NCBI GenBank assembly: GCA_025350345.1
Contig: JANXYA010000049.1
Location: 1-28,401 of the forward strand
Direction: 5' to 3'
Length of the DNA: 28,401 bases
Origin: Gammaproteobacteria bacterium
Lineage (GTDB): Bacteria; Pseudomonadota; Gammaproteobacteria; Steroidobacterales; Steroidobacteraceae
The notes beneath the pieces are model-generated. The model was not told the origin of the DNA. It saw nothing but the letters and a program-made list of their open reading frames with translations, and did not search any database. Made by a program: the position numbers and the translations under genes. This document shows, one piece after another, positions 14,508-27,263 of this stretch (its first letter is position 1; each line of letters opens with the position of its first letter).

Positions 14508-15284
14508 CTACCGGACCTGTTGCTCCGGGGCTGCTGGTCGCTGCGCCAGCATCACCAGCAGCCCGATCGCCGCCATCGCCCAGACGATCACCGGGCTCGA
14601 GGGCAGATCGGTGAGCGCCGAGACGATCAGGCCGACGATGTAGCTGGCGGCCGTCAGCAGATAGCCAATGAGCAGCTGTCGCCCCTGCGGATATCGATAG
14701 GTGGCGACCGCCGGAATGATCAGGCTGGAGAACACCAGGTACACGCCCACCAGCTGCACCGACACGGTCACCGTCACGGCAAATACCACGTAGAAGCCGG
14801 TGCGGCCCAGGCGCTCCCGCCACCTGAACCAGGCCAGCAGCACGAACGCCGTCAGTACCGCGGCACGTACCAGCTGCGGCATTGAGACCCACAGGATCTG
14901 CCCTGCCAGCAGATCCTTCAGGTCCTCGCCACCGTGCGGATCGTTGGCAAGCAGCAGGATCTGCGCGGTGGAAGCAAGCACGAACAGCACGCCAATCAGC
15001 GCTTCCTGCACCTCCGGGCGCCGCTTCTCCGTCCAGGTCAGCAGCAGCGCCGCGAGCAGCGCCGCGCTCACTGCGGCCAGCTGCGTCACCCAGCCCTGCA
15101 GTTCAAGGCCGAAGAAATGCGCGGCGATCACGCCAACACCGGCCACCTGGGCGATGGCCAGGTCGATAAAGACGATGCCGCGCGCGAGCACCTGCTGTCC
15201 GAGCGGCACGTGCGAGGCCAGCACGATGAGCCCCGCCAGCAGTGCCGGCCACAGGATGCTCAGGTTGGCCGACAGCGCGCTCAT
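14508..15284 (-). CDS. Metal ABC-type transporter permease (ZnuB/ABC-3-like)
   Basis: HVPLGQQVLARGIVFIDLAIAQVAGVG, QEALIG, LKDLLAGQILW, VQLVGVYLVFSSLIIPA; about 8 TM; ATGA overlap with the SBP. Confidence 0.88.
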   Translation of the reverse strand: MSALSANLSILWPALLAGLIVLASHVPLGQQVLARGIVFIDLAIAQVAGVGVIAAHFFGLELQGWVTQLAAVSAALLAALLLTWTEKRRPEVQEALIGVLFVLASTAQILLLANDPHGGEDLKDLLAGQILWVSMPQLVRAAVLTAFVLLAWFRWRERLGRTGFYVVFAVTVTVSVQLVGVYLVFSSLIIPAVATYRYPQGRQLLIGYLLTAASYIVGLIVSALTDLPSSPVIVWAMAAIGLLVMLAQRPAAPEQQVR

Positions 15285-16186
15285 TTGACGGCACCGAGCA
15301 GGCGCGCGATGGTGTCGTCGAACAGCGTGAACAGGTCATGCGCCGCAGGCGTTCCGCCGACTGAATAGGGCAACAGCACCACAGGCACGTGAATGCGCTC
15401 GGACAGCCAGTCCGCCGCCTTGGAGTCGTTGTAGGCGTTGCGCAGGATCAGCTTCGGAGGCGCAGCCGAGAGCTTGGTCACCAGTTCCGCCAGGTAGCTG
15501 CTGCTGGGCGGCACGCCCGGCTTCGGTTCGATGGCGGCCACCTCCCGCAGCCCCAGCCAGTGGCACAGGTAAGCCTGGTCGCGATGGATCACTACGACGG
15601 GCACACCCTTCAGCGGCGCGGCCTGCTGCTCCCAGCGTACTATGGCCGCCTGCCAGCGCGACTGGAAATCGCTCCCGCGACCCTGGTAGTAGCTGGCGTT
15701 CGCGGCATCGAGCGTGGCCAGTCTCGCGCTCAGCGCCGCCGCCACGATCGCGATGTTGTGCGGATCCAGGTGCGCGTGCGGATTGCCGAGGGGGTGCACA
15801 TCGCCCATCGAGCGATCGACGGCGGAGGGCACCTCGAGCAGCCGCAGATTGGTATCGGCCTCAAAGTTGCCGGGGTTGCCCGGCTGGATGCGCGCGTTGC
15901 CCGATTCGCGCAGCAGTACCGGCAACCAGCCGATCTCGAGCTCGGCACCGGCCGCGACCACCAGGTCCGCATTGCGCGCCCGCGCCACCAGGCTGGGCTT
16001 GGCGTCGACGCGGTGCACGTCCTGGAAGGCGCTGGTCGCGGCGTACACATCGACCTTGTCGCCGCCCAGTTCCCGCGTCAGCGCGGCCCACTCCGGCGTC
16101 GTGGCCAGCACTCTGATGGCAGCCTGCGCGGGCAGCGTCACGGCGGCAATCAGGATGGCCGCGGCAATTTTCACAATACTGTTCAT
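15281..16186 (-). CDS. Zn/Mn-type (TroA/ZnuA-like) substrate-binding protein
   Basis: Signal peptide ending AQA; QDVH.VDAKPS, AELEIGWLP, MGDVHPLGNPH.HLDP, EPKPGVPPS. Start at 16186 gives 8-nt spacing from GGAG. Confidence 0.9.
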   Translation of the reverse strand: MNSIVKIAAAILIAAVTLPAQAAIRVLATTPEWAALTRELGGDKVDVYAATSAFQDVHRVDAKPSLVARARNADLVVAAGAELEIGWLPVLLRESGNARIQPGNPGNFEADTNLRLLEVPSAVDRSMGDVHPLGNPHAHLDPHNIAIVAAALSARLATLDAANASYYQGRGSDFQSRWQAAIVRWEQQAAPLKGVPVVVIHRDQAYLCHWLGLREVAAIEPKPGVPPSSSYLAELVTKLSAAPPKLILRNAYNDSKAADWLSERIHVPVVLLPYSVGGTPAAHDLFTLFDDTIARLLGAVK

Positions 16187-16197
16187 GATCATGGCTC

Positions 16198-17640
16198 CTA
16201 GAACTTGTGGGCGCCGTGCGCGCCGATGCTGTAGAGGTATTGCAGCATGAGCTGCCGATCGCGGAGGTCGAGGCGCGCATCGTCCCAGGCGTACTGCGCA
16301 CGCAGTCGCGTGAACTCGCTGGGATTCCAGTCAAACATCACGCTGACGCGGGTCGGCTTGGCCGGCGCCAGCGTCGGGAAGCTGATGGGAGGCAGCAGGC
16401 CGCTGTCGATGAGGCCGATGTAAGTGCTGCCCGAATCAAGCGCGTCGTAGCGGGCGCCGAAGCGCCAGCGCGGCATGAACTGATACACGCCCTGTGCGTA
16501 CCAGCCCGATTGCCGGCTGCGGTAAGGCGCCGACAGCGTCAGCTGATTGATCGTCGCCGCGAGCTGTCCGTCCTCGGTGCGCTGCAGGTACTCCGCCTGC
16601 AGCTTCAGCGAGTGCACGTTGGCATTGCCGTGCGGTGACCACTTCAGGATCCCATCGACCACCCAGGTGTGCGAATCGCCGGTGAATGCCTCATCGTTCG
16701 GAACACCGCCCGCCGTGATGTCGGTGAAACTGCGGTCTTCGGCGCGCGCGTCCAGCCACGACAGTCCGAGGCGCCAGCTGGTCGAATCGCCGATGTCATC
16801 GCCCACATGCGCCAGCAGCGCGCCGCCGTTGAGGCCGTTGCCCTGCAGGCTGGTGCGCGGAAACTGCGCGCCGTTGCCGGTCTCCGCGCCGAGTTCGACA
16901 AAAATGTCCGTCGGTGCCACCCACTTGAGCTGGGCGCCGTCCTGCGCCAGCTGCCCGCCGAACATCGCCTGGTAAATGAGCGGCTGGTCCACGAAATCCC
17001 AGGCGTGGCTGTGAACTTCGTTCAGGTAGCCCAGGCCGGAGAAGAACCGCCCCGCCTTGATCGACAGGCCGGAGGGCAGGGCGAAGGTCTTGACGTAGGC
17101 CTCTTCCACACTGATCGAATTGTCGCCGGTGATGGCGGTGGTGAGATTGGCGAAGAAATAGGGATCGACGTTGGCTGCGAGCGACAGCTCGGATTCACCC
17201 AGGGTGAAGCCGCGCGGGCCCGGGCCCACTCCCTCGCCCGCCGGCATGAAGCCGGCGATGCGATAAGTCGCCGGATCCTCGGACAGCTGCGCATAGCGGC
17301 CGCCGAGAATGACCGAGATGGCCGGATTGAAGGCATTCTGTCCGCCCCCGCCTCCCGGAACGCTGGGTGGCAACGCCACGGCAGCAGGGGCCGGGACCTC
17401 CGCCGCCGCAACCGGCGGCGCGGCGCTGGACGCCGCAGCGCTCGAGGCCGCGGCGAGCTGCGACTCGAGCTGTGCCACGCGCGCCTCGAGCGCGCTGAGC
17501 TCCTCCTGGTAGCTTGATTTCACCGCGTCGAGCTCCGATCGCAGCTCGCTCAGCTCGGACGCACGCGCCGGCATCACCGCCAGCGCCAGCAGGCTCAACG
17601 CCGCCAGGCGCAATACGCCTATAGCCTTGTATCTGATCAT
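16198..17640 (-). CDS. Outer-membrane beta-barrel (porin-like) associated with metal uptake
   Basis: Signal peptide, coiled coil, Ala/Pro linker, NAFNPAISVIL, GESEL.L.ANVDPYF, NEVHSHAWDFVDQPL, alternating beta-strand patterns, C-terminal GAHGAHKF; GGAGAGG RBS. Confidence 0.8.
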   Translation of the reverse strand: MIRYKAIGVLRLAALSLLALAVMPARASELSELRSELDAVKSSYQEELSALEARVAQLESQLAAASSAAASSAAPPVAAAEVPAPAAVALPPSVPGGGGGQNAFNPAISVILGGRYAQLSEDPATYRIAGFMPAGEGVGPGPRGFTLGESELSLAANVDPYFFANLTTAITGDNSISVEEAYVKTFALPSGLSIKAGRFFSGLGYLNEVHSHAWDFVDQPLIYQAMFGGQLAQDGAQLKWVAPTDIFVELGAETGNGAQFPRTSLQGNGLNGGALLAHVGDDIGDSTSWRLGLSWLDARAEDRSFTDITAGGVPNDEAFTGDSHTWVVDGILKWSPHGNANVHSLKLQAEYLQRTEDGQLAATINQLTLSAPYRSRQSGWYAQGVYQFMPRWRFGARYDALDSGSTYIGLIDSGLLPPISFPTLAPAKPTRVSVMFDWNPSEFTRLRAQYAWDDARLDLRDRQLMLQYLYSIGAHGAHKF

Positions 17641-17705
17641 GGGACCGCCTCTCCAAACTCATGAGAATCGCCGGACCGCCGCGGCGGCCGGACCCGTGCC
17701 GAGAG

Positions 17706-18026
17706 CTACGGGTGAGCGGGCGGGGCTCGAGAGCGATAGGCAGTGTGAGTGGCGGCGCGCGGCTGCAGCTGCGCCTGAAAGGCGATGACGGAGGATGCGC
17801 GTGCCGGCAGATGCAGCAGAGGAACCGCTGAACCGCCCACGGTGGCCAGGAGCGGTGCAAAGGCCACGCACTCGCTGCAGGTCAGTGCATGGACGCGCTG
17901 CGGCTCGTCATTGGCGTCGCGCGCTACGGTCAGGTGCGAGTAGGCGTGCGCCTGCGCCCCCAGCTGCGCGATCACGAGGACCAGCGCCTGGAGCTTGCAC
18001 AGTACCCTTAGCCTGGAAAGACGCAT
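17706..18026 (-). CDS. DUF2946-like upstream ORF with CxxC and C-terminal RAPP motif
   Basis: 106 aa from ATG 18026: hydrophobic N-terminus, AHAYSH, CSEC (17868-17879), and ...YRSRAPPAHP* (RAPP codons 17718-17729); ends 65 nt before the porin start. Confidence 0.75.
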   Translation of the reverse strand: MRLSRLRVLCKLQALVLVIAQLGAQAHAYSHLTVARDANDEPQRVHALTCSECVAFAPLLATVGGSAVPLLHLPARASSVIAFQAQLQPRAATHTAYRSRAPPAHP

Positions 18027-18052
18027 CTGCTGGCTGCCGCTCACTGCGTGGA

Positions 18053-18081
18053 ATCCTAGCACTTTCAGCGGGTTAAAGCAG
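18053..18081 (-). promoter_or_regulatory. Candidate extended -10 sigma70 promoter for the uORF/metal operon
   Basis: Minus strand CTGCTT-N17-TAGGAT with TGn directly upstream of the -10 (TGcTAGGAT); about 27 nt above ATG 18026. Confidence 0.5.
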
Positions 18082-18155
18082 CGCCCGCGGGCTGTAAACG
18101 ATCTGTAGGTACCCGGTAAGCCACCGGCAAGTAGCCCTGGGGCATCGTTGGCCCC

Positions 18156-19754
18156 ATGGAAACCCAAGCAATCAGCCCGATTTCAAGGACCGCAGGCCAG
18201 GCTCGCGCCGCGCGTGCCCTGCTTCCGGTGTTCTGCGCCAAGGCCGCCTGCGCCGCCGTTTCGCTGGCGCTGCGCCTGGTCCGCAGCCACTTCCAGCTGT
18301 GGCGACTGTGCGCCCGCCACTACCCGGAGGCGCTCAGTCGCCTGGCCGCCTTGATGGCGTACCTGAACTGCCGGCTGGCGACGGCTACCGTGCCGGCGTA
18401 CCAGCGGTTTCTCGCAGCACAGCGCGTCCCGGCCGACACCGCGGCACTGTCGGAGTTTCCGGAGACGACGCGCGAGAACTACGCCGGCGTGTACACGCTG
18501 GAAAGTCAGTGCCGGCAGGGCCGCTGGGACTTGCCCGGCTCGACCGTGGACGAATCCTCCGGCTCGACGGGGCAGCCCTTCAACTGGCTGCGCTGCGCGG
18601 CGGAGCTCGAAGACATCCATCGCAACATCGGCAACTACATCCGTCTCGAATTTCCCACCGAGCGGTTGTTCTGCATCAACGCATTCTCGATGGGAGCCTG
18701 GGCGACCGGCGTCAATTTCACCGCCGCGATGCGCCGCGTCGCGATGGTCAAGTCGGCCGGGCCCGACGTGCCCACCATCATCGCCACGCTGCGGGCCTTC
18801 GGGCCGAAGTACGACTACCTCATCACGGCCTACCCGCCCTTTCTCAAGCACCTGTGCGACGAGCTCGAGACCTCCGGACTGCCGCTCAGCGACTACCGGC
18901 TGTACGGACTGGTGGCGGGCGAGGCGATGACCGAGGCGCTGCGATCACACCTGCAGAAGCGCTTCATCAAGGTGCTGTCGGGGTACGGTGCCTCCGATGT
19001 GCAGGTCGGCATCGGCGGCGAGACCGATTTCACCGTCGCGCTGCGCCAGCGCATCGCCGCGGATGCCAGGCTGCGCTACGCGATCCTCGGCGAAGGGGAG
19101 GACCGGATCCCGATGATCTTCCAGTACAACCCCTGCGAAAGCTACATCGAGGTCAACACGCGCGATGAGCTCATCTTCACGCTGGGCAATACCTCGGTGT
19201 GCTGCCCGAAGCTGCGCTACAACCTGCACGACGAAGGCATGGTCAGGTCCTTCGGCGAAATCGCAGCGACGCTCGCACGGTGCGGGGCCGCCGCCGGAGG
19301 TGCCGCAACGGCCATGCCGCGCGCCAGCATGCGCATGCCGCTGCTGTTCCTGTTCGGGCGGCGCGACAGTACGGTCTCGGTCATGGGTGCGAACATCTAC
19401 CCGCAGGACATCGAGCACGGCCTGTATCGCAATCCGCAGCTGGCGCAGCGCATCCACGGCTTCGTGCTGGCGCTCGAGGAGCACAGCGACCTGAGCGGCA
19501 GCGTCACCGTGCACGTGGAGTGGCGCGACCAGCCCTCAGCCGCGTCCAGCGCAGCCATCGCCGCGGAGCTCGAAGCGGGCGTCTGCACCTACCTGCAGGC
19601 CAGCAACCGCGACTTTGCCAATGCGGCGCGCGAGCTCTCGCAGGCCACGCGCATCCGCGTGAACCTGCACAAGATGGGCACCGGGCCTTTCGCCGCGCGC
19701 CGCGCGAGCATCAAGAACCGCTACCTGCTGCGCGCCGCGCCGGCGACGGTGTAG
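18156..19754 (+). CDS. PaaK-like adenylate-forming (ANL superfamily) enzyme
   Basis: VPAYQRFL, ESSGSTGQP (A3 P-loop), AGEAMTE, YGASD, RYNLHDEG, GRRDSTVSVMGANIYPQDIE (A8); start uncertain because no clear RBS. Confidence 0.85.
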   Translation: METQAISPISRTAGQARAARALLPVFCAKAACAAVSLALRLVRSHFQLWRLCARHYPEALSRLAALMAYLNCRLATATVPAYQRFLAAQRVPADTAALSEFPETTRENYAGVYTLESQCRQGRWDLPGSTVDESSGSTGQPFNWLRCAAELEDIHRNIGNYIRLEFPTERLFCINAFSMGAWATGVNFTAAMRRVAMVKSAGPDVPTIIATLRAFGPKYDYLITAYPPFLKHLCDELETSGLPLSDYRLYGLVAGEAMTEALRSHLQKRFIKVLSGYGASDVQVGIGGETDFTVALRQRIAADARLRYAILGEGEDRIPMIFQYNPCESYIEVNTRDELIFTLGNTSVCCPKLRYNLHDEGMVRSFGEIAATLARCGAAAGGAATAMPRASMRMPLLFLFGRRDSTVSVMGANIYPQDIEHGLYRNPQLAQRIHGFVLALEEHSDLSGSVTVHVEWRDQPSAASSAAIAAELEAGVCTYLQASNRDFANAARELSQATRIRVNLHKMGTGPFAARRASIKNRYLLRAAPATV

Positions 19755-19759
19755 CCGCC

Positions 19760-21445
19760 ATGCTACGCCGCGCCACTTTGTCTGCAGCCCTCCCCGGCGT
19801 TGCCCTGGCGCTGGTGTTGCTGGCCGCCTGCCGCGGCCCGCAGGTTTACCTGGCGGCCACGTCGGCGGACCTGCAGGCCAATCCGGTCGCGGGCCTGGGC
19901 GACGCCGACGCCGGGCGGATGCGCTTTCTGTTCGATGACCTCAATGGCCTGAGCACGCAGACCCTGCAGACCAACGCTTTCCCCTGGAAGGTCGTCACCA
20001 CCGCGTTCCTGCTGGAACGGCAATCGCACCCGCTGACGCCGGCCGATCTGGACGGCCTCGGCGCCGTATTCCAGGAGTTCGGCTTCATCACACCCGCGGG
20101 CATCGCCAACTGGCCGGCCGGCCAGCCTGCACCGCACTTTGCACGGCCCATGGGAATTACCGCCGGCACCATCAGCAGCCCGGTGCTGGGATTCAGGCTG
20201 GAAGTGGCCAACGTGACTTGTGCGGCCTGTCATGCGGGCGTGAGCTACGACGCGCAGGGCATGCCACAGGCGCAAGTCTGGCTGGGCCTGCCCAACACCT
20301 CGGTCAACTACCAGGCCTTCGGGATCGCTGTGACGCGCGCGCTCGGCGCCGCAGTCCGTGATCCGCAGCGATTCCTCGCGGCCCTGCAGGCGCTCTACCC
20401 GCAGCTGGACCGGCGCGAGTTTCACACGATTGCCGGGCGCGTGCTGCCGGCGCTGTCCCGCCACCTGGCCCAGATCGCGGCGACGACGCCGGACTACCCG
20501 TTGGGATTTCACGGCGGCTCGAGCGGCTTCATCAACGGGCTCGGCGCTGCCAAGCGCATGTTCGGGGTGCTGCCGGCTGCGCTCGTCCCCGCCGATCGGG
20601 GCTCCACCTCGGTGCCGGATCTGGCCAGCCTGCGGCTGCGCTCCTCGGCCTTCTGGGATGGCGGCGATGCGCCGGCCGGACAGGCGCGCTTCGAGGAACG
20701 GACCGCCGCCGAGGCGACAGAGGCGCATTACCAGGATTTCGCACCGATCATGAACGCGGTGACGACGCCGGTCATGGGCATCGAGCCCAAGGTCGCGATC
20801 CGCTCGCTGCCGCGCGTGCGGCAGATCGCGCAGTTCCTGCGCGGCTATGCGCCGCCGAAATTTCCCGGAACGATTGATCGCGAGCGCGCGCTGCGCGGCC
20901 GCGAAATCTTTGCGCACTCCTGCAGCCGCTGCCATGGCGAGTACAGCGCAGGCATCGACGAGGTGAGCCTGGAGCGCTTTCCCAATCGCCTGGTCCCGGT
21001 CGAGCGCATCGGCACCGATCCTCTGCGTGCGCAGCTCGTCACAGCCAATCTGGTCGCGGCCTTCAAGCGTTCGCCATTCGCGGCGGGTGTCGACGCGGCG
21101 GCGACCGGCGGCTACGCCGCACCGCCGCTGGATGGCCTTTGGGCTACGGCGCCGTACCTGCATAACGGCAGCGTACCGACGCTGTGGGACATGCTGCACC
21201 CGGCCTCGCGGCCGCAGCGCTTCTGGGTCGGCGGCCACGCCCTCGATTTCTCCCGTGTCGGCATCGCCCTGCAGCCCGATGCCGATGGAGTGTGGGTCTA
21301 CGCCCCCGGCTATCGGCCGTGGGCACAACCGAGCCTCTACGACACGCGCGAACCCGGCCAGTCCAACCAGGGCCACGCCTTTCCCTTCGAGCACCTGACC
21401 GAAGCGGAGAAGACCGACCTGCTCGAGTACCTGAAACTGCTTTGA
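19760..21445 (+). CDS. Di-heme c-type cytochrome lipoprotein, RoxA/MauG/CcP-like
   Basis: Lipobox LLAAC; CAACH (20219-20233) and CSRCH (20921-20935); IGTDPLRA; APPLDGLWATAPYLHNGSVPTL (PYLHNGSVP at 21152-21178); 561 aa. Confidence 0.85.
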   Translation: MLRRATLSAALPGVALALVLLAACRGPQVYLAATSADLQANPVAGLGDADAGRMRFLFDDLNGLSTQTLQTNAFPWKVVTTAFLLERQSHPLTPADLDGLGAVFQEFGFITPAGIANWPAGQPAPHFARPMGITAGTISSPVLGFRLEVANVTCAACHAGVSYDAQGMPQAQVWLGLPNTSVNYQAFGIAVTRALGAAVRDPQRFLAALQALYPQLDRREFHTIAGRVLPALSRHLAQIAATTPDYPLGFHGGSSGFINGLGAAKRMFGVLPAALVPADRGSTSVPDLASLRLRSSAFWDGGDAPAGQARFEERTAAEATEAHYQDFAPIMNAVTTPVMGIEPKVAIRSLPRVRQIAQFLRGYAPPKFPGTIDRERALRGREIFAHSCSRCHGEYSAGIDEVSLERFPNRLVPVERIGTDPLRAQLVTANLVAAFKRSPFAAGVDAAATGGYAAPPLDGLWATAPYLHNGSVPTLWDMLHPASRPQRFWVGGHALDFSRVGIALQPDADGVWVYAPGYRPWAQPSLYDTREPGQSNQGHAFPFEHLTEAEKTDLLEYLKLL

Positions 21446-21458
21446 CAGGCAAGCCACC

Positions 21459-22580
21459 ATGCACTTCCAGCCCATCACCACGCGCCGTGAACTGACCGAG
21501 TGGCTCGATCTGACGCGGCGGATCTACCCGACGCCCCTGTACGTGCCGCCGATCAGGCAACAGCTCGTGAAGTACTTCGAACAGCAGGGTGACGGCGGCT
21601 CGACGCACTGCGCCTTCTTCGCGGTGCGCGATGCGAGCGGCGCCATCGTGGCGCGCACCACCGCGCACTCGAATGCCGCACTCGACGAGAAGTTCGGCCT
21701 GCCGCTGCAGCTGTTCGGATTCACGGAATTCATCGAGGATCCGGCCGCGTTTGCCGCGCTCATCCAGGGACTGCACCGCCAGGGCAGCTATGCCGGGCGC
21801 CACGCGCTGTTTGGCCCCTGCAACCTCCTGCCCAATGCCTACGGCGGCGTGCTCACGGCCGGGTTCGACCAGCGCGGCATCCTCGACAGCGTCTACAACC
21901 ACGCCTACTACGCCGACTACTACCGCCAGGCCGGGTTTCGCGAGCGCTTTGCCTCGGCCACCTACATCTGCGACAGCGTGCAGAGCGGGCCCGACGCCAC
22001 GGCCGTGTTCCGCTTTGACGACGGGCGAATCGCCGGCGAGGGGCTGGAGATCCACTACGCCGACCGCCGCCGCTTTGGCGAACAGATACCGCTGTTTCAC
22101 CAGCTGTTGAACACCTGCTTTGCCGAGCGGCCCTACTACACCAGCATCTCCCTGCCCGAGTTGCATGAACGCATGGCCGAGCTGGTGCACATCATGGACG
22201 AGCGGCTGCTCATGTACCTCACCCGCCATGGCCAACCCGTCGCCTTCGCCATCTGCCTGCCCGACATCTCGGAATTCCTGGCGAAGGTCGACGGCAACCT
22301 GAACCTGTACAACCAGCTGCGGCTGCTGCTCACGCGCCACCGCTATCGGCGCGACGCGCTGTTCGTGGTCGCCGGCGTCGTCGCCAGCTGCCGGGGCCTG
22401 GGCTACCAGGCCTTGCTCCAGCGGCAGCTGTTTCGCAACCTGCGTGCCCACGGCTATCGCGCGATCCGCTCCACCTATGTCGAGGACGACAACGTCGCGG
22501 CCCGCACGCAGTTCCTCAGGATGGGCGGACGCGTCATGCAGCGCCTGAACTTCTTCCAGCTCGAGGTTGCCGGTGACTGA
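21459..22580 (+). CDS. Tandem-GNAT acyltransferase, YghO/bacterial ceramide synthase-like
   Basis: IY...YVPP, FGFTEF, LFGP, GF, N..YY..YY..AGF, LLN..F.....Y.S, GQPVAFAICLPDISE.L.KVDG.L, YVEDDN match the recalled layout of this ~370-aa family. Confidence 0.72.
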   Translation: MHFQPITTRRELTEWLDLTRRIYPTPLYVPPIRQQLVKYFEQQGDGGSTHCAFFAVRDASGAIVARTTAHSNAALDEKFGLPLQLFGFTEFIEDPAAFAALIQGLHRQGSYAGRHALFGPCNLLPNAYGGVLTAGFDQRGILDSVYNHAYYADYYRQAGFRERFASATYICDSVQSGPDATAVFRFDDGRIAGEGLEIHYADRRRFGEQIPLFHQLLNTCFAERPYYTSISLPELHERMAELVHIMDERLLMYLTRHGQPVAFAICLPDISEFLAKVDGNLNLYNQLRLLLTRHRYRRDALFVVAGVVASCRGLGYQALLQRQLFRNLRAHGYRAIRSTYVEDDNVAARTQFLRMGGRVMQRLNFFQLEVAGD

Positions 22581-23607
22581 CTTCGCAGCCCTGCGGGAGC
22601 GCGAGTGGCTGGCGCGGCGCGCGCCCTCGGCCCACAACACCCAGCCCTGGCTGCTGCACTACCAGGCCGACGCCATCCGCCTGGACTTCGACCCGCGCCG
22701 GCACCTGGTGCAATCGGATCCGGGACACCGCGACCTGCTCCTGTCACTGGGCACGTTCGTGGAATCGCTCCTCATCGTGGCAAGCGATGCGGGCCTGGGG
22801 CTGGCGTTCGAGGCTGCGATCGATCTCGAGCGGCACCGCATCGGCTGGTTCCGCCGCAGCGAGGACCTCTACCCCACTGCCTTCGTTCCGCAGGACCTGC
22901 TGCGCCGCCGGACCAGCCGGCTGCCGCTGACTTCGCCGAAGCTTGCTCCGGCTGCCCGCGAGGCCCTGCATTCGCAGCTGCGCGCCGCCGAGCGGCTCGA
23001 TCTGCTGCGCGGCGAGGAGGTGCGCGACCTGCTCGGCCCGGCCGATCGCCACATGCTGGATGAACCCGGCATAGCCGCCGAATTGCGGCAGTGGTTGCGC
23101 CACGATGGCGATGCCCCCGACGCAATGGCGGCCGACTCGACGGCGGCCGATGGACTGAGCAGCGCGTGCCTGTCGCTGAGCGCGCTGGAAGGGCGCGTGC
23201 TGGCGGCCCTGCTGAGCCCGCCGGTGCATCCCTGGTTCCGGCGCCTGCACCTCGCCGCGTTGCTCAATGCCCTGACGCCGCGACTGGTCCACGAGGACAG
23301 CACGCTGCTGGCCCTGCGCGCCCGGGGCAGGGAGCCGGCAGATGTGCTCGAGGCCGGGCGCAGCCTGATGCGATTGTGGCTCGAGCTGGGCCGGATGGGC
23401 CTGTACGTTCAGCCACTGAGCCAGATCCTGGATTTTCCGGAGACGCAGGCGCGATTGGCAGAACGCCTGCGTGTTGGTGCGGACGAGCACCTGTTGTGCC
23501 TGTTCCGTACCGGCCATTCGCCACCGCCCGCGCTGTCGCGACGACTGGGCGAGACGGCGGCGCAGCGCGCATCGCTGCGTGCCGCCGCGGGCGCGGACCT
23601 GCCGTGA
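22573..23607 (+). CDS. Acg-like nitroreductase-fold protein
   Basis: ARRAPSAHNTQPW, LRRRTSR, GRSLMRLWLEL..MGLYVQPLSQ, LCLFRTGH; GTG 22573 with GAGG RBS, overlapping the upstream stop. Confidence 0.8.
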   Translation: MTDFAALREREWLARRAPSAHNTQPWLLHYQADAIRLDFDPRRHLVQSDPGHRDLLLSLGTFVESLLIVASDAGLGLAFEAAIDLERHRIGWFRRSEDLYPTAFVPQDLLRRRTSRLPLTSPKLAPAAREALHSQLRAAERLDLLRGEEVRDLLGPADRHMLDEPGIAAELRQWLRHDGDAPDAMAADSTAADGLSSACLSLSALEGRVLAALLSPPVHPWFRRLHLAALLNALTPRLVHEDSTLLALRARGREPADVLEAGRSLMRLWLELGRMGLYVQPLSQILDFPETQARLAERLRVGADEHLLCLFRTGHSPPPALSRRLGETAAQRASLRAAAGADLP

Positions 23608-25787
23608 AGCCGCCGCGTCCTGATGGAACCCACGGCGCCGGGCGCCGGGGCACGCTGCTGCTGTGGCTGCTGGTCCTCATCGCTTCTTTGCCCCTCGCCT
23701 CGGGGCTCGAGGCGCGGCTGGAAACCGCTGCGCGCGTCACCGGCTCGGATCATGAGCGCGTCGCGCAGCTCCTGCGCAGCGAATTCGACAGCGCCTTCGC
23801 CGACCCGCTGATCCTGGTGGCCAGCGGCATCGCCCCCGGCGATGCGATCACGGCCGAGCAGCTGAGCCATCGACTGACCGCGGCCCTGGAAGTCGATCCG
23901 CACGTCGCCGGACTGCTCAGTTACGAGAACACGCACGATGTGCTGTTCCTGGGCGCCAGGGGACAGGGTGCCGTCATACTCGTGCGGCCGAAGGATCCGG
24001 CGGGCTCGATGGACGCGACGCTCACGCAGCTGCGCGCGCTCACCGCGATGCTGGAGCGTGAGCTGCGTGGCTCTGCCCCGGCGCTCTCGCTCCAGTGGAC
24101 GGGCGCGGCGGCACTCAATGCCGACCTGCGGCGCGTCAGCGCGACGGAAGCCCAGGCGGCCGAGGCGCGGGTGATGCCGCTCGTCCTGCTGCTGCTCCTG
24201 CTGGTGTTCCGCTCGGTGCCCGCGGCGCTCCTTCCGGCGATCGCCGGCATGGTCTGCATTCCGATCGCACTCGGGATCGCCGCGCTCGCGAGCCGCGTCC
24301 TGCCGCTCTCGATCGTGCTGATCAACGTCGTCTCCATGCTGGGACTCGGACTCAGCATCGACTATGCCCTGCTGATGGTCGGCCGCTTTCGCGAGGAGCT
24401 CGCCGCCGGTCACGACGGCCCCGCGGCGGCCCGGCGGACGCGTCGCAGCGCCGGTCATACCATCCTGCTGTCGGCAGCCGGCATTGCCGTGGGATTCGCG
24501 GCACTGCTGCTCGTGCCGATCAACGAGATCCGCTCGATCGCGGTGGGTGGACTGATCGTGCTGGCCGTCGCCGTGCTGCTGGCCTGCACCCTGCTGCCGG
24601 CCCTGCTCGCCAGGCTCGGCAGCCGGATCAATGCCTGGCCCGTGCCGTGGCCCAGGCGCTGGTCGCTGCCCCACGGTTCCTGGAGCCGCGCGACGGGCGC
24701 ACTGTTCCGGCGCCCCGCGCTGTTCCTGCTGTGTGGACTGGCGCCGCTCCTGTTGCTCGGCGTGCACGCCCTGGATCTGCGCATCAGCCTGCCGCGCGGG
24801 CAGTGGCTGCCGCGCTCCGCCGCCTCGGTACGCGCGATGACACAGCTTCAGGCCATGGGCCAGCCAGATCTGTCACAGCTGATTGAAGTGCTGGTCGGGC
24901 TGCCCGCCGGGGTGAGCGTGGATGATCCGCGCGGGCGCGCCCTGCTCGCGGATGTCTCGCGCCAGCTGGGCCGTGACGCCAGAGTCGGCGCGGTGCGCGA
25001 GCTCAGCGCTGCCGCCGTCCTGGCCGAGGCGGCGGGCGTCCCGGTCACGAAGGCGCTGCCCCAATTGCACCGCATGTTTGCCAGCCGTGACCTGCGCACG
25101 GCCCTGGTCGCGCTCATTCCGGCGGCCGGGACCGACAGCATCGCACTGACCGAGCTGGTACGCGACATCCGCGCCGGGCGCAACTTCGTGCTGCCCGAGA
25201 GCGCCGCCTCGATCCTGGTCGGCGGCCTGCCTGCCCTGAACGCCGACTACGAAGACTCGGTTCGCTCGCACAGTCCAGCGGTCGTCGCCACCGTGCTGGG
25301 CGTCAGTTTCCTGATGCTCCTGATCGGCTTCCGTTCCGTGGCGATCGCCCTGAAGGCCGTGCTGCTGAACGTGATTTCGGTGGCGGCCTCACTGGGCGCG
25401 CTCGTCTGGGTGTTCCAGGACGGCGTCTTTCCCAATATTCCCATCCTCGCCTTCTGCATCGTGTTCGGGCTGAGCATGGACTACGAGGTGTTCCTGTTCC
25501 ATCGGGTGCTGGAATCCCACCGGGCCGGCCGCACGGACGAAGAGTCGATGGACGATGGCCTGCGACTGACCGCGAGGCTGATCGCCAGCGCCGCACTCAT
25601 CATGATCGCGGTGTTCGGCGCCTTCTGCCTGGGCGAGTTCCTGTTCATCAGGATGCTCGGCTTCACGCTCGCCGTAGCGGTATTGATCGACGCGACGCTC
25701 GTGCGGCTGCTGCTCGGTCCGGCGATATTTGCGCTGGCCGGACGCTGGAACTGGTGGCCCGGGCCGCGCCTGGACCGCCTGCGCTAG
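23604..25787 (+). CDS. MMPL (RND superfamily) transporter
   Basis: Two internal repeats with GLGLSIDYALLMVGRFREE and FGLSMDYEVFLFHRVLE (paired Asp-Tyr), ITG/TARLIASAALIM, DATLVRLLLGPA; about 11-12 TM; GTGA overlap with the upstream gene; 727 aa. Confidence 0.92.
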   Translation: MKPPRPDGTHGAGRRGTLLLWLLVLIASLPLASGLEARLETAARVTGSDHERVAQLLRSEFDSAFADPLILVASGIAPGDAITAEQLSHRLTAALEVDPHVAGLLSYENTHDVLFLGARGQGAVILVRPKDPAGSMDATLTQLRALTAMLERELRGSAPALSLQWTGAAALNADLRRVSATEAQAAEARVMPLVLLLLLLVFRSVPAALLPAIAGMVCIPIALGIAALASRVLPLSIVLINVVSMLGLGLSIDYALLMVGRFREELAAGHDGPAAARRTRRSAGHTILLSAAGIAVGFAALLLVPINEIRSIAVGGLIVLAVAVLLACTLLPALLARLGSRINAWPVPWPRRWSLPHGSWSRATGALFRRPALFLLCGLAPLLLLGVHALDLRISLPRGQWLPRSAASVRAMTQLQAMGQPDLSQLIEVLVGLPAGVSVDDPRGRALLADVSRQLGRDARVGAVRELSAAAVLAEAAGVPVTKALPQLHRMFASRDLRTALVALIPAAGTDSIALTELVRDIRAGRNFVLPESAASILVGGLPALNADYEDSVRSHSPAVVATVLGVSFLMLLIGFRSVAIALKAVLLNVISVAASLGALVWVFQDGVFPNIPILAFCIVFGLSMDYEVFLFHRVLESHRAGRTDEESMDDGLRLTARLIASAALIMIAVFGAFCLGEFLFIRMLGFTLAVAVLIDATLVRLLLGPAIFALAGRWNWWPGPRLDRLR

Positions 25788-25806
25788 CCCCGCTGGCGCC
25801 GCCGCC

Positions 25807-26427
25807 TCAGCGGCTGGCCGGACGATCAAGCAGGCGCACATGGCGCGGCTGCGCCGCCACACGCGCCAGCCACGCGCGAATCGCGGGGAACGGGGCGAGC
25901 TCGAGCCCAGCCTCCTCCGCCACGTGCGTGTAGGCATACAGCGCGATGTCGGCAATGCTGTAGCGCTCGCCCACGAAGTAGCTGCGCGTGGAGAGCTGCC
26001 CCTCCATCACCGCGAGTGCCGCGCGACCACGCTCCTGGCGTTGCGGCAGTTCGGCGCGGCGCGGATGGTCCGCGGGCAGGTGGTGCATGATGAAGCGCGG
26101 CGTGGCCACGTTGGGCTCGTGGCTGTATTGCTCGAAGAACATCCACTGCAGCACCTGCGCGCGCGCCAGCCGCTCGGTGGGCAGGAAGGCCGTGCCCTCG
26201 GCCAGATAACACAGGATGGCATCCGATTCGGCCAGGCATTGCCCGTCCTCGAACTCCAGCGTCGGGATGCGGCCGTTCGGATTCTTGGCCAGGAACTGCG
26301 GCGTGCGCGTCTCACCGCGCGTGATGTCGAGTTCGACGTAGCGGTAAGGCTGCTGCAGCTGCGCCAGCAGCAGGCGGATCTTGTAGCCATTGCCGGAATC
26401 GAGAAAGTCGTAGAGCGTGTACATCAT
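25807..26427 (-). CDS. Glutathione S-transferase family protein
   Basis: SGNGYKIRLLL, KNPNGRIPTL, LAESDAIL.YLAEG, QWMFFEQYSHEP, SIADIALYAYTH. Confidence 0.93.
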   Translation of the reverse strand: MMYTLYDFLDSGNGYKIRLLLAQLQQPYRYVELDITRGETRTPQFLAKNPNGRIPTLEFEDGQCLAESDAILCYLAEGTAFLPTERLARAQVLQWMFFEQYSHEPNVATPRFIMHHLPADHPRRAELPQRQERGRAALAVMEGQLSTRSYFVGERYSIADIALYAYTHVAEEAGLELAPFPAIRAWLARVAAQPRHVRLLDRPASR

Positions 26428-27263
26428 TCAGTCCCTATTGGTGTGTCGGCACGCGCGCCCCATTCCGCCCAGGACCCGTCATAGAGGGCGCCCTCGGGCA
26501 GGCCGGCCACGGCCAGGCCGAGGTTCAATATCGCCGCCGTCAGGCCCGAGCCGCAGCTCGTGATCACGGCGCTGTGTTCATCCACGCCGGCGCGCGCGAA
26601 GCGCTCGCGCAACTCCTCGCGCGGGCGCAACGTCTGTTCAGGGGTCAGCAGCTCGGCATAGGGCAGGCTGCGGGCGCCCGGTATGTGCCCGCTGCGCAGC
26701 CCCGGCCTCGGCTCGCTCACCCTGGCATGGAATCTATCGGCGGAACGGGCATCGAGCACGAGTTCACGCCCCGAGCGGAGATTGTCCAGCAGGTCCCCCA
26801 TCCCACGGAGCAATCCGGCGCGCAGCGCGGTCCTGTACACGGCCGGAACGGGCGCAGTGATCGCACCCTCCTGCAGCGCGCGTCCTTCGCTGCGCCACTT
26901 CGGCAATCCGCCGTCGAGCACCGCGACCTGCTCGTGACCAAACAGCCGCAGCATCCAGCGGCCGCGGGCCGCGGAGAAGATGCCGAGCTGGTCATAGCAT
27001 ACGATGCGACTTGCATTAGAGACGCCCAGTTCCCCGACCAGCTGCGCGAAGCGGCCCGCAGCGGGCACCATGTGCGGGAGTCCCGATTCACGATCCGCGA
27101 TCAGGTCGATATCGAAGAAACGCGCCCCCGGAATGCGCCCCGCCGCGAACAGCCCGCGGGCATCACGCTTGTCCCCAGGCATGTACCACGTGGCATCCAG
27201 TACCACGAGGTCCGGGTCCGCCAGCCTGGCGGCGAGCCATTCCGTGCTGACGATGGGATCCAT
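26424..27263 (-). CDS. sseA: 3-mercaptopyruvate sulfurtransferase (tandem rhodanese)
   Basis: MDPIVSTEWLA, VLDATWYMP, IPGARFFDID, LDGGLPKW, LDARS..RF, GHIPGA, active-site SCGSGLTAA, YDGSWAEWG. Confidence 0.95.
   Translation of the reverse strand: MDPIVSTEWLAARLADPDLVVLDATWYMPGDKRDARGLFAAGRIPGARFFDIDLIADRESGLPHMVPAAGRFAQLVGELGVSNASRIVCYDQLGIFSAARGRWMLRLFGHEQVAVLDGGLPKWRSEGRALQEGAITAPVPAVYRTALRAGLLRGMGDLLDNLRSGRELVLDARSADRFHARVSEPRPGLRSGHIPGARSLPYAELLTPEQTLRPREELRERFARAGVDEHSAVITSCGSGLTAAILNLGLAVAGLPEGALYDGSWAEWGARADTPIGTE

Follow-up and report, generated by a model that had tools for sequence, protein, structure and literature searches.

What does a tight run of five genes encode in a Steroidobacteraceae bacterium when it combines an adenylating enzyme, a di-haem lipoprotein, an acyltransferase, a flavoprotein and a transporter? 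The genes, here called g1 to g5, form an operon at 18156-25787 on the plus strand of the window, by which we mean the one whole contig of 28,401 nucleotides (28.4 kb, JANXYA010000049.1) that was analysed; it belongs to a metagenome-assembled genome (MAG) of 2.2 Mb and 72.5% completeness. A first-pass annotation of this DNA had proposed an undescribed lipid or metabolite pathway and had set a biosynthetic reading beside a catabolic one. Our preferred reading, to which we give a probability of roughly 55%, is that the island carrying the operon is self-contained and both builds and exports an N-acylated amine or amino-acid lipid, by a ligase-type route related to the acyl-oxazolone and N-acyl-dehydro-amino-acid pathways (OxzAB, TyzABC, TrzAS). 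The features on which the argument turns are the following.

18108-25805, no strand: inserted island of 7698 bp with the whole operon inside
18156-19754, plus strand: g1, PaaK-fold ANL adenylating enzyme, 532 amino acids (aa) (sequence matches, Foldseek)
19760-21445, plus strand: g2, periplasmic di-haem c-type lipoprotein with a C-terminal RoxA-like domain, 561 aa (family models, motifs)
21459-22580, plus strand: g3, tandem-repeat GNAT of the YghO/bCerS-like family, 373 aa (Foldseek, hhalign)
22573-23607, plus strand: g4, Acg-like flavin-dependent oxidase of the nitroreductase superfamily, 344 aa (family models, PDB 2ymv)
23604-25787, plus strand: g5, MMPL-type RND transporter, 727 aa (PF03176, 3.3e-71)

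The island and its five genes

The five open reading frames are co-oriented and closely packed, with gaps of 5 and 13 nt followed by overlaps of 8 nt (g3/g4) and 4 nt. Start codons are ATG for g1, g2 and g3 and GTG for g4 and g5. A GST gene on the minus strand (25807-26427) converges on g5, beginning 19 nt past its stop codon, and the genes upstream of g1 also lie on the minus strand. The coordinates of the reading frames thus confirm the layout first described, including its gaps, overlaps and convergent GST. A scan of 17500-26500 found no promoter-like site and a single weak terminator-like site, inside g5.

Comparison with related genomes places the whole operon on one piece of inserted DNA. 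In the two nearest same-genus genomes (G013:C26 and G023:C22), whose flanks are about 85% identical to ours, only 6-10 nt separate the two flanks; the left flank stops at window position 18103-18107 and the right flank resumes at 25804-25806. The interval 18108-25805 is therefore one inserted unit, the ends of which coincide with the operon. Searching 30 same-genus genomes by DNA gave matches to both flanks and none to the block in any of them, the g3 protein was not found in 24 same-genus genomes, and no g3 orthologue was present among 400 genomes sampled from the phylum, where the best match was 27% identical. The GC content is 0.69 within the island and 0.66 elsewhere in the window, and no direct or flanking repeats, integrase or transposase were seen at its junctions. 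Judged from these alignments, the island was acquired as a single unit by the soil gammaproteobacterium that the Steroidobacteraceae MAG represents. Metagenomes contain near-identical copies of the GNAT (97%), the di-haem protein (85%) and the MMPL (95%), and the island is therefore present in close relatives in nature.

The acyltransferase g3 matched no family model in Pfam or NCBIfam, and a profile search of solved-structure sequences gave nothing useful. The top Foldseek matches of its AF2 model (pLDDT 86.3) are tandem GNATs (7q3a, 2wpw and MshD), the model being a tandem-repeat GNAT akin to MAB_4324, the clavulanate tandem GNAT and MshD, and a Cupriavidus homologue that is 26% identical passes PF00583. 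When the g3 family profile was aligned to E. coli YghO with hhalign, the two matched with a probability of 99.7% (E 2.7e-25, 364 aligned columns, 19% identity). YghO is listed as the E. coli counterpart of Caulobacter CC_1154 ('aca'), an acyl-CoA N-acyltransferase required for dihydroceramide (PMC9386255); a literature search for bCerS and YghO named together returned nothing. The full-length homology to YghO and the published listing therefore support a YghO/bCerS-type assignment at the level of a remote homologue. To this full-length profile homology with the bacterial ceramide synthase family (CC_1154, YghO) we add, as a further likeness, that the family consists of cytoplasmic acyl-CoA N-acyltransferases acting on a lipid amine. 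The genomic context differs, in that spt/serine palmitoyltransferase, ACP/acpR and ceramide reductase are missing from the island, and none of them is conserved around the 80 actinomycete cassettes described below. Distant YghO-like tandem GNAT paralogues (24-29% identity) also occur in same-order genomes, at L105 (G027:C155, ~50595-51668) and L106 (G033:C53), one of them within a 653-aa open frame; they are uninformative on the cassette because every partner gene is missing there.

Tandem GNAT folds also include FemX and the aminoacyl-tRNA-dependent transferases, which appear lower in the g3 Foldseek list, and nitroreductase-fold dehydrogenases are used in azole-forming peptide pathways. The operon could thus be pictured as modifying a ribosomal peptide or protein by means of an adenylating enzyme, a Fem-like tandem GNAT and a SagB-like dehydrogenase. 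We consider this highly improbable: the best fold matches of g3 are small-molecule GNATs and not Fem proteins, the cassette genes overlap or abut and leave no room for a precursor gene, no conserved small open reading frame flanks them, and no YcaO is found among the called neighbours.

The adenylating enzyme g1 matches the PaaK equivalog model TIGR02155 at 4.8e-9 with 35.2 bits, far below the cut-off of 646.3 and hence short of equivalog status, and it matches PDB 2y4o at 1.8e-10 in a sequence search. Its AF2 model (pLDDT 83.7) is closest in Foldseek to PaaK1/2, BT_0428, ClxA and NatL2, reaching an E of 4e-20 and a TM of up to 0.71 on the target with 2y27 and 2y4o, and the nucleotide motif SSGSTG at residue 134 keeps the Ser/Thr-Gly-rich loop. 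By its modelled structure g1 has the PaaK fold, for which the sequence evidence alone is weak. It resembles the PaaK-family AMP-ligases NatL2, ClxA (benzoxazole biosynthesis) and PaaK (PDB 6tm4, 9s45, 2y4o) in fold and nucleotide motif, and differs from them in being about 100 residues longer, with a helical and hydrophobic N-terminal extension. Some members of the PaaK family need no CoA to form the ester or amide bonds that lead to an oxazole-type ring. A hydrophobic helix spans residues 21-44 of g1, and the first ~44 residues are not common to the actinomycete homologues, so that the start codon of g1 is less certain than those of the other four genes. The same kind of extra N-terminal stretch with a hydrophobic helix is seen across the ligases from the Gram-negative form of the cassette (window 18156-18290, equal to g1 residues 1-44; L101:2500-2740; L111:1666-1905) and is shorter or missing in actinomycete homologues. 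It may be a membrane anchor.

The oxidase g4 scores 145.6 bits against the Acg family model NF047509, aligning to model positions 5-313 of 319 and staying below the cut-off of 199; by these scores it is a relative of the Acg family and not a member by the NCBI threshold. The Rv1355c-family model gives 76.5 bits, with the alignment falling on its oxidase part, PF00881 gives 3.5e-8, and the only relative in the PDB is 2ymv, named Acg nitroreductase (3.1e-11). The transporter g5 matches PF03176 in two stretches with 240.4 bits, above the gathering score, and is polytopic, with nine long hydrophobic stretches in a crude count.

The lipoprotein g2 has a lipobox (LAAC) and two CxxCH haem motifs (CAACH, residue 154; CSRCH, residue 388). 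Its score on NF040606 ('di-heme-cytochrome C peroxidase') is 162 bits, above the cut-off of 150, and it contains the RoxA-like cytochrome c domain PF21419 (2e-21, 75.7 bits). With RoxA, RoxB and RoxC it shares two haem sites and the RoxA-like domain, but it scores only 62-88 bits on the corresponding equivalog models, whose cut-offs are 900-1000; it is far from a full-length equivalog and is not an orthologue of the rubber oxygenases. All five family assignments of the first-pass annotation hold up against family models, folds and motifs, including the YghO/bCerS call for the GNAT.

Recurrence of the cassette in other genomes

A pattern scan of species-representative genomes for the g3 family returned 281 relatives, and the best 80, all from Actinomycetota, were examined. 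Homologues of g1, g3 and g4 occur together and in the same order in about 75 of the 80 loci (tblastn with the window proteins). Queries from Yinghuangia recovered the ligase in 76, a 154-aa protein in 79, the GNAT in 80 and the oxidase in 78 of the 80, and no further conserved neighbour was found around these loci. The actinomycete ligase is among the most conserved cassette genes, with a median identity of 69.6%. The 154-aa protein occupies the exact slot held by g2 in the window. PF13826 (Monooxy_af470-like) is weakly matched by 16 of 17 copies of it (best E 1e-4), which makes the protein a weak but consistent candidate relative of the ABM/af470-like monooxygenases; it has no real match in the window's own genome (E 0.08). 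In Yinghuangia-like genomes a 590-620-aa Ala/Arg/Leu-rich protein without a Pfam match lies directly upstream of the cassette (L082:6008-7879, L083:6116-7879), and since only 3 of the 80 loci have it, it is not part of the cassette.

Five metagenome contigs (L101, L088, L086, L090 and L126) show the di-haem form again, and two further contigs link the MMPL to other genes of the set. Their gene orders are listed below, with identity to the window protein where given.

L101: ANL (62%), di-haem (63%), GNAT (62%)
L088: ANL, di-haem, GNAT, Acg
L086: di-haem, GNAT, Acg
L090: di-haem, GNAT, Acg
L126: di-haem, GNAT, Acg
L110: GNAT (68%), Acg (49%), MMPL (56%), in the order of the window
L111: rearranged, the MMPL (51%) being divergent from a gene run containing the ANL (53%) and the di-haem protein (54%)

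On L086, the run is followed by a DUF6152 protein of 146 aa (L086:2837-3277) and not by an MMPL. On L111, a PEGA-domain protein of 171 aa and an 83-aa open reading frame lie between the MMPL and the ANL and di-haem genes (L111:1893-2696).

Through these di-haem and MMPL recurrences, all five genes are linked outside the source genome. The first-pass annotation had staked its proposal on the genes co-occurring elsewhere, and the linkage is strong both in the actinomycete loci and on the metagenome contigs. The five-gene arrangement is more than chance, because the block is a clean indel relative to same-genus genomes and because its gene combinations recur elsewhere, and the genes of the cassette are functionally linked. 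The picture of a single five-gene unit needs to be modified in one respect, since conservation is unequal: the cassette consists of a three-gene core and a swappable oxygenase slot, and the MMPL is found only in the Gram-negative branch.

The actinomycete form also bears on the direction of the pathway. If the cassette were catabolic, a periplasmic di-haem oxygenase would cleave a hydrophobic polymer or lipid, as RoxA does with rubber, and the fragments would be taken up and activated by the ligase. The RoxA-like domain PF21419 of g2 fits such a route. The host appears to belong to the Steroidobacteraceae, the label that NCBI gives to a cluster-mate (90% identity) of the host's 814-aa sarcosine-dehydrogenase-like protein, and this family includes the rubber degrader where RoxA was found. 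The scores of g2 on the RoxA, RoxB and RoxC models do not fit the route. In the actinomycete cassette a di-haem protein is missing, as are genes for a transporter, a hydrolase or beta-oxidation; MMPLs are known to export, and the block is missing from the 30 same-genus genomes searched. Of the two directions left side by side at the outset, we therefore favour the biosynthetic one, on the strength of an actinomycete form without transporter or degradative enzymes and a g2 that is no rubber-oxygenase orthologue, and we regard catabolism as quite improbable.

Published relatives and a ThiF-type sister cassette

If the cassette is biosynthetic, which known pathways does it resemble? In Mycobacterium tuberculosis, TyzABC (Rv2336, Rv2338c, Rv2337c) makes N-acyl tyrazolones: an acyltransferase acts together with a ThiF cyclase and with a flavin oxidase of the nitroreductase superfamily, which carries out an O2-dependent desaturation, and mmpL9 lies adjacent (Grigg et al. 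2023, PMC10404671). TrzAS (Rv1356c/Rv1355c) is the tryptophan counterpart, which yields tryptazolone and has ThiF fused to the oxidase (PMC12856293), and three phyla conserve a core of NAS, ThiF and nitroreductase for N-acyl dehydrotyrosines (PMC12479983). The island shares with TyzABC an N-acyltransferase, one ATP-dependent adenylating enzyme, a single-domain nitroreductase-superfamily oxidase of ~340 aa and an adjacent MMPL. Its parts differ: the 373-aa acyltransferase belongs with the YghO/bCerS-type tandem GNATs and not with the TyzA/NAS type, the ATP enzyme has the PaaK fold and not that of ThiF, the Acg/Rv3131 model fits the oxidase better than the oxazolone-type model does, and there is an extra oxygenase (di-haem, or ABM-like in actinomycetes). 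With OxzAB of Pseudoalteromonas rubra and TrzAS of mycobacteria and Rhodococcus, the likeness is that acylation comes first and an amino-acid-derived amide then undergoes ATP-dependent activation and desaturation with O2 (PMC12856293; bioRxiv 10.1101/2020.06.11.147165); those pathways have a ThiF-oxidase fusion, whereas the island has a stand-alone oxidase and no ThiF.

The first-pass annotation was aware of no published cluster that has this combination. That claim does not stand as worded, as the same logic has been published for OxzAB, TyzABC and TrzAS (PMC10404671, PMC12856293); the island pathway is undescribed in the literature searched, yet it is a variant of chemistry known since 2021. 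One hallmark of the acyl-oxazolone clusters, a nitroreductase-superfamily flavin oxidase adjoining an acyltransferase, is present as g4 beside g3. Because an NAS-type acyltransferase and ThiF are missing, we do not file the island as a member of the acyl-oxazolone group and treat it only as working alike.

A sister cassette that does carry ThiF was found in Cupriavidus consociatus and at metagenome loci L112-L123.

L103:11641-16942 (Cupriavidus consociatus), minus strand: ThiF-type sister cassette, with a 324-aa protein, ThiF, a 425-aa membrane protein, a tandem GNAT and an Acg-like oxidase

Full-length relatives of g2 adjoin the ThiF-type operon in Cupriavidus (L103) and on L102, and at L103 a divergent acyl-CoA synthetase also adjoins it. 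The sister cassette thus has in common with the island a tandem GNAT (26% identical to g3), an Acg-like oxidase (27-30% to g4) and a di-haem lipoprotein (41-50% to g2); it additionally has the 324-aa protein, ThiF and the polytopic membrane protein, and it is without the PaaK-fold ligase and the MMPL. The 425-aa protein, polytopic by a crude hydrophobicity count, and the 324-aa protein belong to no family in NCBIfam or Pfam. A tandem GNAT adjoins 11 of the 16 full-length g2 relatives from metagenomes, in a ThiF-type or ligase-type cassette, and most of these 11 also adjoin ThiF and an Acg-like oxidase. From this linkage it follows that the three shared proteins (tandem GNAT, Acg-like oxidase, di-haem protein) function with ThiF in some cassettes and with a PaaK-fold ligase in others. 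No paper was found that describes the ThiF-type cassette with a di-haem protein.

In a quick maximum-likelihood tree of g3, with ThiF-type sequences as the outgroup, four sequences from a di-haem context and four whose context is unknown group into a single clade (SH-aLRT 99), which is nested among actinomycete sequences and has a Gaiellaceae/uncultured-actinomycete group as its sister. The branching pattern is consistent with the di-haem gene having taken the place of the ABM-like gene in a single event.

A proposed route to an N-acylated lipid

How might the five proteins act together? The gene set, folds, island structure and conserved linkage are observed, and the substrates, step order and product given here are inferred. 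The acyltransferase g3 would N-acylate an amine or amino acid from an acyl thioester, and g4 would desaturate the product with O2, like TyzC and the oxidase domain of TrzS. For g4, an O2-dependent desaturase is a better reading than the generic 'FMN redox' first suggested. The single ATP-dependent step would be provided by g1, which could either adenylate the carboxylate of the N-acyl amino acid for cyclisation, the role of ThiF, or activate the acid destined to become the acyl group. Finally, g5 would move the lipid across the inner membrane and g2 would oxidise it in the periplasm, the slot of g2 being taken in actinomycetes by the cytoplasmic ABM-like monooxygenase.

The two roles proposed for g1 draw on different parts of the sister cassette. 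By analogy, the exchange of ThiF for a ligase between sister cassettes suggests that g1 activates a carboxylate for cyclisation. The PaaK fold of g1, together with the separate acyl-CoA synthetase beside the ThiF-type operon, suggests simple acid activation. Carried further, the latter leads to the same cassette without a heterocycle, in which g1 would only convert a carboxylic (perhaps aryl or arylacetic) acid to an acyl-AMP or acyl-CoA as the GNAT donor, and the product would be an open-chain, desaturated and oxygenated N-acyl amide. The nearest folds to g1 are indeed acid-activating PaaK enzymes, and the presence of both ThiF and a separate, divergent acyl-CoA synthetase in the sister cassette means that activation and cyclisation can be separate jobs. 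GNATs, however, normally use the cellular acyl-CoA pool, as TyzA and TrzA do, and do not require a dedicated ligase, and the high conservation of the actinomycete ligase suggests a committed and specific step. We consider the open-chain product somewhat unlikely.

Several observations weigh against the cassette being a relative of the acyl-oxazolone pathways that makes and exports a lipid. PaaK-family enzymes typically activate aryl or arylacetic acids and not fatty acids or N-acyl amino acids. None of the five island proteins matches a ThiF/E1-type cyclase (PF00899, ThiF models), g3 is a tandem GNAT and the island has no other acyltransferase that could be of the NAS/TyzA/OxzA type, and no island component is orthologous to its counterpart in a characterised pathway. 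For assigning g4 to FDO-A (TyzC, TrzS, OxzB) or FDO-B (Acg, Rv3131) the guide is model scores, and the Acg/Rv3131 model outscores the Rv1355c (TrzS) one; Grigg et al. argue that Acg-type (FDO-B) oxidases do not occur in oxazolone clusters (PMC10404671). There is no MMPL downstream of the cassette on L086 and L090, nor near the actinomycete cassettes. The g3 tree, moreover, comes from a quick search with a very long outgroup branch. Grigg et al. also note that Acg-type oxidases may desaturate other lipids (PMC10404671), and the cassette offers such a non-oxazolone lipid context for them.

A more specific proposal, which we advance tentatively, goes beyond the preferred reading of a biosynthesis-and-export cassette. 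The cassettes could define an undescribed, ThiF-independent class of lipid-amide pathways, in which a new lipid is the joint product of a PaaK-fold ligase, a tandem GNAT resembling ceramide synthase and an Acg-type flavin oxidase, and in which the final oxygenation moved from the cytoplasm (ABM-like) to the periplasm (an MMPL-fed di-haem lipoprotein) on entering Gram-negative bacteria. If this is true, it would provide the first biochemical context for Acg-type oxidases. These oxidases, which include proteins of the M. tuberculosis dormancy regulon, have no known substrate, and the cassette ties an Acg-like oxidase firmly to an acyltransferase and an adenylating enzyme in hundreds of genomes. 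The large family of uncharacterised di-haem 'peroxidases' likewise gains a likely lipid substrate context, and the exchange of the ABM-like for the di-haem protein, together with the gain of the MMPL, shows, as a natural experiment, how a pathway can be re-plumbed as it moves between cell-envelope types. The four-gene form is present in many cultured actinomycetes (Nonomuraea, Micromonospora, Dactylosporangium, Embleya, Actinomadura) and is thus tractable for expression and knock-out. Because it has no polyketide synthase or nonribosomal peptide synthetase gene, the cassette has probably been overlooked by standard genome-mining tools.

Upstream of the island, the window encodes on the minus strand (14508-17640) a ZnuA-like binding protein, an ABC-3 permease and a porin-like protein of 480 aa. 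These genes are conserved in same-genus genomes and therefore belong to the host backbone and not to the island.

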